Shown here: positions 9,665 through 59,216 of the stretch, piece after piece
How the letters are laid out: each line of letters opens with the position of its first letter
How positions within the stretch are numbered: the stretch's first letter is position 1
From: Candidatus Micrarchaeota archaeon
GTDB taxonomy: Archaea; Micrarchaeota; Micrarchaeia; Anstonellales; Bilamarchaeaceae
Assembly: GCA_043827025.1 (NCBI GenBank)
Contig: JBDRPL010000011.1
Coordinates: 1 to 64,000 of the forward strand
Direction of reading: 5' to 3'
DNA: 64,000 nt
Notes under the pieces: model-generated
What the model was told of the DNA's origin: nothing
Database searches by the model: none
The model's input: the letters and a program-made list of their open reading frames with translations, nothing else
Program-made: the position numbers and the translations under genes

Positions 9665-10069
9665 ATGGAAGTTGAAAAGGCAAGCGATGTGCAGGACAGG
9701 GTCGAGGATGTGATACGCATTCTGGAATTCAACCACATCATAGATGCAAGAATAATCTGCATGCGCAGCCGCAAAGCAAAGGCTAGAGCTTATGCAAGGA
9801 TTTGGTCATTGCCAATGATCTGGAGAACTGCCCTTGAGATAAGCCCTTTTTATGTAATTGAAGTTTTGTCAGAACATTATGACAAGCTGGATGATGTTGA
9901 AAAGACAAAAACAATTATTCATGAACTAATGCATATTCCTAAGAAGTTTTCTGGTGGTTTGGTTCCGCATGTGAACAAAGGAAGGCATGTCAACCACAAA
10001 GAGGTTGATAAGCTATATCAAACTTATTTGGAAAAAACTCAGTCAAATGTAATCTCGTCCAATCTGTAG
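9665..10069 (+). CDS. Small zincin-like metallopeptidase
   Basis: IIHELMHIP (HExxH) plus a downstream His. Confidence 0.75.
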   Translation: MEVEKASDVQDRVEDVIRILEFNHIIDARIICMRSRKAKARAYARIWSLPMIWRTALEISPFYVIEVLSEHYDKLDDVEKTKTIIHELMHIPKKFSGGLVPHVNKGRHVNHKEVDKLYQTYLEKTQSNVISSNL

Positions 10070-10476
10070 AATCTTGGTCTGTTTTCTTCTTTATTGTATT
10101 GCACAATTACGAGCTGTTTTCTCAGACTTTTTGCAACCCTAAGGTCTTTCAACCCCGCCTCTTTTATGTCTTCCACTACTTTCATGACAAACATGGTTCT
10201 GTCTTCTCCAATGCGGATTCCTTTTTGATAAATTCGAATGTATTCTGAGTCTTTGCTGAACCTTGTGATGTACTTGTGGTCTCTTAGATATTTTATTATT
10301 TCATATTTGTCATCAGCAAGTTCATCTTTTTTCTTGAATTTTGCAAAAAGCTCATCTGCCTTTCCTTCAACCAATCCTTTATCCACAATATATTTGTATT
10401 CGAGAATATGCACTTCTTTTTCAAATCCAAGGTTTTCCAGATCTTTTTCGAGTTTTATGAACATGCTTCCACGCAC
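10039..10476 (-). CDS. tRNA splicing endonuclease-like subunit, probably structural
   Basis: KYEIIKYLRDHKY, RIYQKG and RVAKSLRKQLVI follow the EndA C-terminal pattern; the catalytic His position appears replaced (EDRT). Confidence 0.6.
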   Translation of the reverse strand: MRGSMFIKLEKDLENLGFEKEVHILEYKYIVDKGLVEGKADELFAKFKKKDELADDKYEIIKYLRDHKYITRFSKDSEYIRIYQKGIRIGEDRTMFVMKVVEDIKEAGLKDLRVAKSLRKQLVIVQYNKEENRPRFYRLDEITFD

Positions 10477-15984: not shown

Positions 15985-16770
15985 ATGGCAGTTGTTCAAA
16001 CTCAAAAAAAGATTGTTGATTTGGGAGATGCACCTTATCTAAGGGCCAGAGAAATATCTGTACAAAGAGGCATGAAATTAGCAAGCAATGTCCTTCATGA
16101 TGATTATCTTGTTGGATCAAACAGATATCAAAAAGTAAGACGTGTTTATGCCGCTTGGGCAAGAGAATTATTGGTTTATCCAGAACAAAATGGTCAGTTT
16201 GTCAGGGGCAAAGACGTTGTTGATTCTCATAAAGATAATACAGGAAGAGAATGGGTTTTACCAGCAAGTGATGTTCCAGAACAAGCAATAGGCAGGCAAA
16301 AAGTAGGCTTGTTTGTTGATCCTGAAAATATAGAGGTTACTGATAAAAGAGTAGTGATTCATCCAGCTTCTGTTGTTGTTTTAGATTCATTTATCCAAAC
16401 ATTAGGAAATGGTGGAAAAGTAGATGAAGCAACAAGGATTCCATTAGAAGTTGCCCCTGAACTTTGGGAAAAACTTTCTGATTCAGAGAAGAGATGGCTG
16501 TTCAGAACCGCAGGCGTTGGTGTAAGGCCTCTAGTCCGCTACGTCTACGACATCAACAACAGGCGTGTCGTCGATGCGGGCAACAGGCCCGGCCTTGGTT
16601 ACGGGGTGGCAGCAGAGGCCACCGAAGGTGGCGCGCCGCGTGTAACCAGTACTTCTAAATTGGTAATCTCTGTACAAGAACCTGGAAAATTAACTCTTGT
16701 TTCACCCTCCGGTTCTGACGAACAAATTCAAGCTGCTTTGAGAGTTCTAAGGTCGCAGAATTTACTCTAG
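15985..16770 (+). CDS. DGR target (variable) protein
   Basis: 261 aa; VR encodes RPLVRYVYDINNRRVVDAGNRPGLGYGVA, followed by about 52 further residues. Confidence 0.92.
   Translation: MAVVQTQKKIVDLGDAPYLRAREISVQRGMKLASNVLHDDYLVGSNRYQKVRRVYAAWARELLVYPEQNGQFVRGKDVVDSHKDNTGREWVLPASDVPEQAIGRQKVGLFVDPENIEVTDKRVVIHPASVVVLDSFIQTLGNGGKVDEATRIPLEVAPELWEKLSDSEKRWLFRTAGVGVRPLVRYVYDINNRRVVDAGNRPGLGYGVAAEATEGGAPRVTSTSKLVISVQEPGKLTLVSPSGSDEQIQAALRVLRSQNLL
16526..16610 (+). repeat. DGR variable repeat (VR)
   Basis: Aligns to 17016-17053 plus 17102-17148; all 15 mismatches lie opposite TR adenines. Confidence 0.95.
16618..16632 (+). promoter_or_regulatory. Candidate DGR target-recognition hairpin 3' of VR
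   Basis: GCCACC-GAA-GGTGGC, 7 nt after the VR end, with no equivalent after TR. Confidence 0.8.
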
Positions 16771-16802
16771 TTTTTTAATCTCTTTTATTTACTTTATTAA
16801 TT

Positions 16803-17168
16803 CCTAGGTGCAAGCCTAGGCCACACACTCGTCTACAGCGCTGGTAGCTTAATAGCAGGCCAGACATGAATGAAAATCTTTAGAGATTTTCAGTATTTCG
16901 AAATCTAAAGATTTCTCAATGAAATTCAACAGCAACAGTGAGTAAGTTACCAACCGAAATCCTGAAGCTGTGGTGTCGGTACTTCGGTACCCTTTGAGTA
17001 GATGGGTTACCATTGGGCCTCTAGTCCGCAACGTCAACGACATCAACAACAGGAGTAATCTCTGGTTGCTTTTTCAAAATAACCAGTATTGCTGTGAAAG
17101 GCGTAACGTCAATGCGAACAACAGGCACGACAATGGTTACGAAATGACCTTACTGGCTTGCATTCTAG
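16803..17168 (+). ncRNA. Predicted structured DGR RNA (leader + TR + spacer)
   Basis: Hairpins at 16803-16820 (GCAA loop), 16871-16892, 16900-16915 and 16978-16991 (cUUCGg); tgcaagcc 16809-16816 is complementary to ggcttgca 17155-17162. Confidence 0.55.
17016..17148 (+). repeat. DGR template repeat (TR) interrupted by a 48-nt hairpin insert (17054-17101)
   Basis: AAY-rich (9 AAC/AAT codons in the aligned parts); two blocks colinear with VR, separated by sequence absent from VR. Confidence 0.95.
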
Positions 17169-17188
17169 TTTAATTTTCTTTTTATTCT

Positions 17189-18293
17189 ATGAACAATATG
17201 AAATCTTACCGGCATTTGTATTCCAAATTGTGTTCATACGAAAATCTTGAGCTTGCGTTCAAGTGTGCAAGGAAACGAAAAACCCTCAAACCATACGTTA
17301 TAGAATTTGGGTCTGATCTTGACAATAATCTAAAACGGCTGAAATGCGAACTAGAAAATTTTACTTACTCGCCCTTACCCCTAACGACTTTTATTGTGCG
17401 CGACCCTAAAACAAGAAAGATAAGTGCATCCCATTTCAGAGACAGGGTCGTACATCATGCATTATACAATGTCATAACTCAGATTTTTGAGAAAGATTTC
17501 ATTCATGATTCTTTTGCAAACCGGAAAGGCAAAGGAACTCATTCAGCAATAAAGCGATTTGAACAGTTTTTAGCACAAACCACACTCAACCATAAAAAAA
17601 CCATAGAGAGAGAGAGAGAGTCAAATTGGTTATGTACTAAAAGCTGACATACGCCATTATTTTGAAACAGTCGATCGCGAAATTTTATTGGGCATATTGA
17701 AACGCAAGTTAAAGGATACACATATTATCTGGCTTATAAGAAAAATATTGGACAACAACAAGACCGCTATGGTCGAAAAGGGTATGCCCATTGGAAATTT
17801 AACCTCTCAATTCTTTGCTAACGTTTATCTGAACGAACTCGACCAGTTTGTAAAGCACAAGCTGAAAGCCAAGTATTATATTCGTTATGTTGATGATTTT
17901 GTGGTTTTACACAGTGACAAGAACATTCTTGAAAAATGGAAGAATGAAATCGATGCATTTTTAAGATCAAATTTGGCTGTAGAACTGCACCCTGAAAAAT
18001 CAAGAATACTTTCATTACGAAGAGGGATAACATTTCTGGGTTTCAGAATCTTTTCGAAATATAAACTTCTCAAGAAAAGCAATGCAAGAAGAATATGGAA
18101 ACGTTTGGAAAGATTTAAGCAGAAATGCAATAAAGGAGAGATCACACGAGCTGAAGTCGTTCAAAGTTTGGAAGGTTGGCTTGCCTATGCTGAATTTGCG
18201 AATTCCTATAAATTCAGGAAAAGAGTTATCGTTAAATTCAATGAATTATTTGATACAAATAAAGAAAATTCAGAGAAGCTGAGCAAAGCTTAA
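17189..18293 (+). CDS. DGR reverse transcriptase, frameshifted at (AG)8 (phase-OFF allele or pseudogene)
   Basis: Part 1: PKTRKISASHFRDRVVHHAL, SFANRKGKGTH. Part 2, other frame from about 17622: GYVLKADIRHYFETVD, GMPIGNLTSQFFAN, YIRYVDDF, FLGFRI. Confidence 0.93.
17605..17620 (+). repeat. (AG)8 microsatellite at the RT frameshift
   Basis: ccat-(ag)8-tcaaatt. Confidence 0.95.
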
Positions 18294-57740: not shown

Positions 57741-59216
57741 ATGGGATTTAATAATGCTAACTTAAAGAAGCCTGATTTGAAAAGAATATCTGACGTTATA
57801 TGGGAAATCGACCCTTCCTTTAAAGAAGGAATGAGGGTTCCAGCAAGGCTTTACGCAACTGATAAGCTTATCAATCACATGGATTTGTCCGTTTTCGATC
57901 AAATAACAAACGTTGCAACTTTACCAGGAATACAGAAGTATGCATATTGTATGCCCGATGGCCATTCAGGATATGGATTTCCAATAGGCGGATTGGCTGC
58001 AATGGATATTAATGACGGAGGAGTCATCAGCCCTGGCGGAATTGGTTTTGATATAAATTGCGGAATGCGGCTTTTAACCACAAATCTTACGTTGAATGAT
58101 GTGAAGCCTAAGTTAAAGGAATTGGTCAATAGTTTCTTTGATAGAGTTCCTACTGGAGTGGGATGCACAGGATTTGTAAAAATCGATAAAACCGAGTTCA
58201 AGAAATCTATTGAGCAGGGTGCCAAATGGGCAGTTGAAAAAGGCTATGGCTGGGCTGAAGACCTAGAAAGAACAGAAGCCAATGGCTGTGATGAGGGTGC
58301 AGATGCAAAGACTGTCAGCGAAACTGCGATCAAAAGGGGCTTCAACCAGATTGGTACTTTAGGCTCTGGTAATCATTATCTTGAAGTCCAGCATGTAAAA
58401 GAAGAAAATATCTTTGACAAGCAACTTGCAAAGAAATGGGGCATTTTCCCTGATCAAATAGTGGTGATGTTTCACTGCGGAAGCAGAGGCTTTGGACACC
58501 AGGTTGCAACTGATTACTTACAATCATTCTTGTCAGTCATGGAAAGCAAATTCAAGATCAACATACTTGATCGCGAGCTTGCATGCGCACCTTTTGATTC
58601 AAAAGAGGGGCAGGATTATTTCTCTGCAATGAAATGTGCTGTGAATATGGCATTTGCAAATAGGCAGACAATTGCGCATCGAATAAGGGAAGTGTTCGCA
58701 AAAGTATTCAATACTGATGCTGAGAAATTGGGAATGCACCAAGTTTATGATATTGCTCACAATAGGGCTTCATTGGAAAAACATAAGATAGATGGGCAGA
58801 TGAAGGAACTGCTTGTGCACAGGAAAGGTGCAACAGCTGCATTTGGCCCTGGCCATGAATCCATTTGCGGACCTTACAAACAAGATGGCCAGCCAGTAAT
58901 AATCGGCGGTTCAATGGAAACAGGTTCATACTTGCTTGCAGGGGTTGCATCAGGTGAATCAACTTTCTTCACAACTGCCCATGGCGCAGGAAGAACAATG
59001 AGCCGGGCAGAGGCCAAGAGAAAGTGGAATGGCACACAGTTGCAGAAGGATCTTGAGAACAAGGGCATTTACATAAAGACAGCTTCATACGCAGGGCTTG
59101 CAGAAGAAGCAGGCGGAGCATACAAAGAGATCGACGATGTCATAGAAGCAACAGCTTTGGCAGGGATCTCAAAGAAGGTTGTGAAGCTGGTTCCAATTGG
59201 GAATATTAAGGGATGA
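57741..59216 (+). CDS. rtcB: RNA-splicing ligase RtcB
   Basis: MPDGHSGYGFPIG, DINCG, GSGNHYLE, HCGSRG, HRKGAT, HGAGR. Confidence 0.97.
   Translation: MGFNNANLKKPDLKRISDVIWEIDPSFKEGMRVPARLYATDKLINHMDLSVFDQITNVATLPGIQKYAYCMPDGHSGYGFPIGGLAAMDINDGGVISPGGIGFDINCGMRLLTTNLTLNDVKPKLKELVNSFFDRVPTGVGCTGFVKIDKTEFKKSIEQGAKWAVEKGYGWAEDLERTEANGCDEGADAKTVSETAIKRGFNQIGTLGSGNHYLEVQHVKEENIFDKQLAKKWGIFPDQIVVMFHCGSRGFGHQVATDYLQSFLSVMESKFKINILDRELACAPFDSKEGQDYFSAMKCAVNMAFANRQTIAHRIREVFAKVFNTDAEKLGMHQVYDIAHNRASLEKHKIDGQMKELLVHRKGATAAFGPGHESICGPYKQDGQPVIIGGSMETGSYLLAGVASGESTFFTTAHGAGRTMSRAEAKRKWNGTQLQKDLENKGIYIKTASYAGLAEEAGGAYKEIDDVIEATALAGISKKVVKLVPIGNIKG

Follow-up and report, generated by a model that had tools for sequence, protein, structure and literature searches.

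Diversity-generating retroelements (DGRs) are understood as copying a colinear template. According to the description of the canonical systems, with Bordetella phage BPP-1 as the example (PMC5758913), they comprise a reverse transcriptase (RT), a template repeat (TR) and a variable repeat (VR). The two repeats differ at adenines only, the VR is situated close to the 3' part of the target gene, and a G+C-rich stem-loop follows it. Their TR is colinear with the VR apart from slips: small TR/VR length differences beside AAC repeats were reported for 25 of 372 DGRs by Wu et al. 2018 (PMC5758913), who ascribed such indels beside AAC to slippage. Compact archaeal DGRs are described from the ultrasmall groundwater archaea of the DPANN (Paul et al. 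2015, PMC4372165; Paul et al. 2017). Naorem et al. 2017 (PMC5703328) engineered the BPP-1 TR to carry a td group I intron, an artificial, self-splicing insert of about 400 nt. It does not appear in the cDNA because RNA processing precedes reverse transcription.

Outside the DGR field, two processes are known to take a hairpin out of an RNA or of its copy. The bulge-helix-bulge introns of Micrarchaeota are removed by an ε2 endonuclease and a ligase, and the ARMAN-2 ε2 enzyme was found to cleave strict as well as relaxed motifs (PMC3239211; PMC12397907); the known substrates are tRNA, rRNA and a few mRNAs. At the level of the cDNA, deletions caused by RT template switching are known to have a characteristic layout, in which short direct repeats stand at the base of a hairpin (PMC2923612). 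Such RT "pseudo-introns" (Houseley and Tollervey 2010, PMC2923612), whose cDNA is without the hairpin and one repeat, are presented there as in-vitro artefacts that concern commercial RTs and a fraction of the molecules.

Here, we describe a DGR of a Micrarchaeota archaeon that shares the hallmarks of the canonical systems and the compactness of the DPANN ones, whose tiny size and groundwater habitat its host also has, but in which a conserved structured module of 45-48 nt interrupts the TR. It also differs from the canonical systems in having no Avd beside the RT and an RT-16 RNA 5' of the TR. Unlike the td insert, the module is natural and has no ribozyme match. It shares with the ε2 introns a host enzyme and ligase, an initial long hairpin and a candidate relaxed HBh'-like register, whereas no register combines canonical cut geometry with the observed junction, and the RNA concerned is a retroelement template. 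It shares with the pseudo-introns the hairpin with short repeats at its base and the loss of the hairpin and one repeat, but here as a conserved, near-obligatory step with 3 nt of homology. A natural, conserved and active template is thus edited or jumped each time, and either mechanism bears on how an RT handles its template. Among the titles and abstracts listed in our searches of the DGR literature, we found no description of a natural interrupted TR, nor any link of a DGR with bulge-helix-bulge motifs or of RT-16 with a DGR.

An interrupted template repeat in an active DGR

The stretch that we analysed, called the window hereafter, is 64,000 nucleotides long and belongs to a genome assembly of 36 contigs. 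The locus is an active DGR of a Micrarchaeota archaeon, in which the target gene with its VR, the RT-16 RNA, the TR and the RT follow one another in this order (Table 1). Judging from its RVT_1 match (63.7 bits, on the C-terminal part, 17628-18290) and from the presence of the motifs RKGKGTH and GYVLKADI, the adjacent RT is of the DGR type. The G+C-rich hairpin that follows the VR occupies what we take to be the place of the IMH-associated stem-loop of DGRs (the BPP-1 element). No Avd gene lies in the cassette, there being no ORF between the target, the TR and the RT, and the sole Avd-like gene of the genome (PF05635, 58.7 bits) is far away from it, at G000:C25:57572-57877 on the minus strand. 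The Avd accessory gene is not universal among DGRs. Besides RT-16, no other RNA family was found by Rfam in 16700-17300 (E<=1), and Blast and regular-expression searches of the 1.33-Mb, 91.6%-complete genome gave no second copy of the TR, the VR or the hairpin.

Table 1. Coordinates, in the window, of the DGR locus, of the RtcB gene and of the candidate splice registers discussed in the text
Feature	Position	Strand	Basis or remark
DGR target gene, 261 aa	15985..16770	+	ORF; no Pfam match
VR	16526..16608	+	mismatches to TR all at TR adenines; hairpin-less junction 16560/16561
G+C-rich hairpin directly 3' of VR	16606..16645	+	-19.6 kcal/mol, z -2.64
RT-16 RNA motif (Rfam RF03019)	16803..17015	+	62.3 bits, gathering score 50; ends one base before TR
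TR 5' block	17016..17053	+	last bases AAC AAC AGG; 5' AGG at 17051-17053
TR-only insert	17054..17101	+	hairpin core 17054-17098 (AGU...GUGAA) and 3' AGG at 17099-17101
TR 3' block	17102..17146	+	TR/VR alignment; 17 adenines
DGR reverse transcriptase, two frames	17189..18293	+	frames 17189-17647 and 17628-18293; RVT_1
(AG)8 simple repeat at RT frame break	17605..17620	+	most related RT genes have a repeat or homopolymer tract here
RtcB RNA ligase (host splicing ligase)	57900..59213	+	PF01139, 554.5 bits; 494-aa open frame
Candidate register W	cuts 17053/54 and 17098/99		removes 45 nt; H 3/4, h' 5, h 1; product AGG AGG, 1/8 VRs
Candidate register Y	cuts 17054/55 and 17097/98		removes 43 nt; H 4/4, h' 4, h 0; frameshift, 0/8 VRs
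Candidate register X	cuts 17050/51 and 17098/99		removes 48 nt; H 3/4, h' 1-mismatch-4, h 2; junction of 7/8 VRs

The alignment of the TR (17016-17148) with the VR (16526-16610) comprises 85 aligned positions and a single gap, of 48 nt, which is found in the TR only. A sequence-only reading of this DNA had claimed that an insert of 48 nt, bounded by AGG, is absent from the VR, and both direct reading and alignment confirm it: the TR is not colinear with the VR, unlike what is expected of a standard DGR. Because AGG flanks the insert on both sides, the placement of the gap is ambiguous and slides from 17051-17098 to 17054-17101. The adenine-specific changes that had been seen on both sides of the insert are also borne out, as the 15 mismatches are all at TR adenines, 2 of them 5' of the insert (17030 and 17036) and 13 of them 3'. 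In the 5' block, 2 of the 12 adenines are changed in the VR of the window and 4 more sites differ in a second allele, described below; in the 3' block, 12-13 of the 17 adenines are changed in the VR of the window. In the VR frame, the insert makes 16 codons (SNLWLLFQNNQYCCER) without a stop, and inspection upheld the claim that none of them can be converted to a stop by an A-to-N change. At all 8 loci where we found the hairpin, the insert is stop-free and measures 45 or 48 nt, a multiple of 3; this in-frame, stop-free character hints at a leaky bypass.

Conservation of the hairpin and rewriting of the VR across it

A homologous hairpin at the same TR position, which a gapped TR/VR survey of related DGRs had been suggested to look for, is present in 8 distinct Micrarchaeota DGR loci: our own (L025), L010, L017, L022, L032, L039, L040 and L052. 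L040 (PCSG01000276.1), a contig with a Micrarchaeota-type DGR, is filed in a MAG that bears the label Desulfobacterales, probably through faulty binning. The TR context is common to the 8 loci (...C AAC AAC AGG, hairpin, AGG C(GU/AG) AAC GUC...), and the hairpin proper, from AGU to GUGAA, is 42 or 45 nt long. In the alignment of the 8 sequences, 93.8% of the 96 cells of the 12-pair hairpin are paired, against 15-72% in slid controls, and 4 of the 12 pairs show compensatory double changes, for instance at the foot of the upper stem, where U-A replaces C-G in 3 sequences. The covariation score was reached by none of 500 shuffles, a count that overstates the case since the 8 sequences are related. 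Chance is excluded, because the same element recurs in 8 distinct loci with compensatory changes.

The insert folds as the sequence-only reading had claimed, but a slightly different register of the lower stem fits the relatives better. In the fold preferred by RNAalifold, the lower stem is displaced by 3 nt and includes the last four bases of the exon, ACAG (17049-17052); apart from one G·G, this stem is paired throughout the 8 sequences. The module is specific to the transcribed strand: owing to G-U pairs, the plus strand folds better than its complement (-13.2 vs -8.6 kcal/mol), a bias that agrees with selection acting on the TR transcript; the window hairpin taken alone shows a modest gain over shuffles (z -1.5). 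Both AGG copies are invariant in the 8 loci, and so are 18 hairpin-proximal bases (AGGAGU...UGCUGUGAA), while the loop, the upper stem and the coding flanks of the TR vary. Neither a kink-turn, whose C-stem fails, nor a hammerhead core was found when searched by hand. In the minimum-energy folds of several loci (17023-17116 in the window), the TR 5' block CGCAACGU pairs with the 3' block ACGU...UGCG, so that the hairpin is predicted to form the apex of a larger TR stem-loop.

As for the distribution of the element, 30 of 151 related genomes, our own included, contain RT-16, and in the related RT-16 loci the TR lies directly 3' of RT-16 and the VR about 350-500 nt upstream. A motif of the 3' half of the insert is present downstream of RT-16 in 5 of the 30 loci. 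An exact-pattern scan of species-representative genomes returned 11 stretches, of which 6 are the element in its TR context and 5 are unrelated, and a metagenome scan returned 9 stretches, 4 real and 5 unrelated. A looser gapped pattern was run on 401 genomes that sample the class; it picked up the element in 5, all belonging to the family of the window. These are the same 5 genomes, and no more divergent hairpins came with them. No TR insert longer than 9 nt was found in 13 further RT-16 loci from other families. The insert is older than the split of at least 4 genera. The RT tree was built from C-terminal parts (26 rows, without L018, L032 and L039, which are too short, and without the loci that have no readable motif). 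In it, the hairpin loci are inside one 11-row clade (support 85/95) where at least 3 state changes are needed: L017, L025 and L022 are grouped (100/99), L010 is sister to the hairpin-less L007 (91/73), and L052 is sister to the hairpin-less L004 (97/85). The tree suggests that the hairpin module is easily gained or, more likely, lost, while the RT is visibly unchanged. Close relatives with a contiguous TR, which the sequence-only reading had envisaged, do exist; the one-off inactivating event that it had coupled with them is contradicted by the 8 loci. DGR finders that require an ungapped TR/VR alignment will overlook or misidentify such elements.

In 7 of the 8 loci, the hairpin plus exactly one AGG is absent from the VR. 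This is the whole of the loss in L025, L022 (both strains) and L039, and one or two further codons are lacking in L010, L017, L040 and L052. The VR of L032 retains AGG AGG, and one codon further upstream is missing. We also considered a simple stem bypass and rejected it: excising exactly the paired region takes 47 nt and mismatches the VR, except ambiguously in L022. Besides the alignment of the window, there are 8 VR alignments of hairpin loci, each with 0-2 non-adenine mismatches, for a total of 9 (8 sequences and L046), and all VRs sit in open target genes; L049 has no VR in its flank.

The rewriting of the VR can be followed between close strains and within a sample. L043 and L046 were obtained from different collections, and 3004 of their 3018 positions are identical, the whole hairpin-bearing TR included. 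The VR accounts for 13 of the 14 differences, with 6 upstream and 7 downstream of a junction that both share. In the Logan contigs of the run that is probably from the source sample (X1), two VR alleles appear as a bubble over 16478-16625: one is that of the window (depth 10), and the other (depth 6.3) departs from it at 12 positions, without a gap. At 11 of these 12, the position is templated by a TR adenine, 4 before and 7 after the junction. Both TR blocks are therefore still being written into the VR across a reproducible junction. In the same run, two records (4 and 6) point to a second Micrarchaeon with a hairpin-bearing DGR of the L022 type, at a depth of about 31.7 vs 10-19.

None of the 10 VR alleles carries the insert, and its signature (QYCC or CCER) is found in none of the 64 homologues of the target protein (E<=1e-5), whose source names are all Candidatus Micrarchaeota. 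Looser insert patterns gave 3 matches in these homologues, none of which was judged to be the insert; one reads as ordinary VR content, and the other 2 were judged by protein position only. The proposal that optional copying adds a loop of 16 aa is left unsupported by these counts, and the VR alleles or remote targets with the 48 nt that had been sought appear neither in the genome nor among the 10 VR alleles. Since the module is absent from all VRs seen and the VR is rewritten from both blocks, its removal comes after transcription. It follows that the hairpin is bypassed every time, after transcription and before or during cDNA synthesis. The element is real, conserved and functional.

Copy-choice by the RT or processing of the template RNA

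A jump of the RT via AGG and splicing of the RNA had both been among the hypotheses that the sequence-only reading listed without preference, and both survive. The explanation that we favour over splicing, tentatively and at somewhat less than an even chance, is a copy-choice jump in which the RT passes from one AGG repeat to the other across the base of the hairpin. The RT would copy the 3' block up to the 3' AGG and halt short of the folded hairpin; the end of the nascent cDNA (the complement of AGG) would re-pair with the 5' AGG, held adjacent by the stem; and synthesis would resume into the 5' block, this intramolecular jump deleting the hairpin and one AGG. The direct repeats are present in 8/8 loci, the hairpin and one AGG are lost in 7/8 VRs, and the covarying base of the hairpin abuts both repeats, which brings donor and acceptor together. 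The loss of a hairpin together with one of the short repeats at its base is classically the mark that RTs leave when they switch template within a molecule, and it matches 7 of the 8 loci. The RT family also often skips repeated AAC codons, in the same forward direction as the proposed jump: among the insert-less loci with a good TR/VR alignment (n=28), AAC-run codons (3-9 nt) are TR-only in 11 (L006, L007, L013, L020, L021, L023, L031, L055, L056, L063 and L065) and VR-only in 2 (L008 and L026), a strong bias that mostly leaves the VR as the shorter copy. Because such losses occur in insert-less loci as well, the extra codon losses are not specific to the hairpin loci. The jump has, however, several weak points. 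The stability of the hairpin is no more than moderate (-13.2 kcal/mol, z -1.5), the template must be left 3-5 nt ahead of the stem, and the homology is just 3 bases, one of them a mutable A, which is little for a near-obligatory and always precise jump. A mere obstacle does not account for the invariance of AGGAGU and UGCUGUGAA, and the 5' and 3' blocks diversify about equally, with no visible barrier at the hairpin. Furthermore, the VR of L032 keeps AGG AGG, and sister RTs (L010/L007 and L052/L004) serve TRs with and without the hairpin, which a host-supplied removal fits at least as well. The host also has many introns, RtcB and a splicing endonuclease of broad specificity. Several of these difficulties would disappear with a bound protein, of which there is no sign; the hairpin's own role may be that of a binding site or of a brake on cDNA synthesis. 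If the jump is true, DGR RTs would be capable of programmed discontinuous synthesis.

Splicing is the rival that we take most seriously, as a possibility about which we remain rather doubtful: the TR RNA would be cut by the host ε2-type endonuclease at a relaxed bulge-helix-bulge and rejoined by RtcB, and the RT would copy a colinear template. The host is well equipped for it, since its endonuclease (392 aa) is a full-length homologue of the ARMAN-2 ε2 enzyme (4fz2, E 1.3e-131) and RtcB (554.5 bits) is encoded in the same window as the DGR. Its tRNA introns are 21-99 nt long and begin with long hairpins, and their motifs are often relaxed, with 3/4 pairs in the H helix and one outer helix missing in a geometric score, a standard that register W attains (H 3/4, h' 5 bp). 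The engineered td-intron experiment indicates that spliced TR RNA is competent as a DGR template (PMC5703328), the patchy presence of the module among sister RTs resembles intron gain and loss, and its removal is efficient, both blocks being equally diversified. The difficulty is that no register satisfies both the geometry and the junction, and that no strict hBHBh' motif is found at the insert, W, Y and X being relaxed only. The W product, AGG AGG, is seen in 1/8 VRs only, and its conversion by slippage would be unusual, as both codons are kept in 5/5 VRs of the loci whose insert-less TR reads AGG AGG at this site (L008, L013, L016, L027 and L063). Y, which has the best geometry, takes out 43 nt and breaks the frame, and X is the least stable (-2.4 vs -11.7 kcal/mol for the consensus fold of the window sequence; score 6). 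All three lie 3.5-9 kcal/mol above the consensus fold, in which the 5' junction is inside a helix, and splicing leaves the conserved direct repeat of 3 nt without a role. Unrelated, chance site pairs in the same 106 nt reach scores of 7-8 and so equal W and Y, which means that the element does not stand out as a bulge-helix-bulge intron. These points weaken splicing, but the permissiveness of the ε2 enzyme keeps it in play. In its fullest form, which we consider unlikely, the hairpin would be a genuine archaeal intron in a retroelement template, matured by the host endonuclease and RtcB. Owing to the triplet repeat AAC AAC AGG AGU at the end of the 5' exon, the central helix could adopt two registers 3 nt apart, and the resulting alternative 5' splice sites would give templates with one or two AGG codons, which would add codon-length diversity to point diversity (L032 vs the other seven). 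If splicing is true, the template RNA would be open to host RNA processing, and tRNA splicing would be tied to targeted hypermutation.

Some other RNA- or RNP-level process is improbable by our estimate: a protein sitting as a roadblock on AGGAGU...UGCUGUGAA, or cleavage next to each AGG by some other endonuclease and subsequent ligation. The 18 invariant hairpin-proximal bases, which fit neither a bare obstacle nor a structure-only enzyme, are in its favour, but it requires an unobserved extra component, and neither a candidate protein nor a known motif came to light (with E<=1, Rfam gave RT-16 only in 16700-17300; kink-turn and hammerhead were searched by hand). Readings that deny any bypass fare far worse. 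The hairpin could be a late, tolerated insertion at which the cDNA stops, so that only the 3' block is diversified and the 5' differences are relics, or the VR could have suffered a deletion; the low rate of change in the 5' block of the window (2/12 adenines, against 12-13/17 in the 3' block) speaks for it. L043 and L046, however, differ at 6 sites of the 5' block with an identical TR and flanks that are 99.5% identical, the two X1 alleles differ there at 4 sites, every difference in the 5' block falls on a TR adenine, and the insert is older than the divergence of at least 4 genera. A late insertion or a VR deletion, as a one-off inactivation, had been among the hypotheses of the sequence-only reading; with 8 loci in at least 4 genera and both blocks rewriting the VR, we reject it as highly unlikely. 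An assembly artefact in the window has in its favour that the X1 contigs end at 17053 and restart at 17106, none of them spanning 17054-17105, but such breaks are expected from 31-mers common to the TR of the co-occurring relative (records 4 and 6), and the same element is present in independent assemblies of other samples. Because relatives carry the element, we regard misassembly as very unlikely indeed, to the point of being negligible, and even when the relic and the artefact are put together only a slight probability falls to them. The jump of the RT between the AGG repeats thus stays our favoured reading.

Host tRNA introns, the RT-16 RNA and the RT linker

In the 91.6%-complete genome, Rfam gave only 13 tRNA matches (G000 contigs C2, C5, C6, C10, C25, C26, C30 and C32). 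Most of the detected tRNAs have introns of 21-99 nt with several hairpins, and many tRNA genes are probably too disrupted to be detected. The window also contains, at 10039-10476 on the minus strand, an ORF of 145 aa with a weak, sub-threshold match to tRNA-intron endonucleases (21.4 bits).

RT-16, an orphan of Rfam, appears in the present DGR family as a structured RNA directly 5' of the TR. Only RT-10 is assigned to a DGR in the relevant part of the paper that defined the RT motifs (PMC5737381). No RNA run was listed as containing 16450-17250 of the window. Two metatranscriptome runs from the same study yielded no sequence of the TR, and a contig of one of them (X15) contains 33 nt of the 5' hairpin of a relative's RT-16.

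Finally, the linker of the RT between motifs 1 and 2 holds a simple tract in most related DGRs, namely (GA)5-11, G8-G22 or C9-C12, and the RT motifs are in different frames across this tract in 20 of 29 loci, with a shift of +1 in some and of -1 in others. The sequence-only reading had alluded to a frameshift in the RT, and the RT of the window does read in two frames across (AG)8. This is a simple-repeat tract conserved in most related RTs and not a sign of decay; it looks like a conserved phase-variable or slippage switch on the RT.
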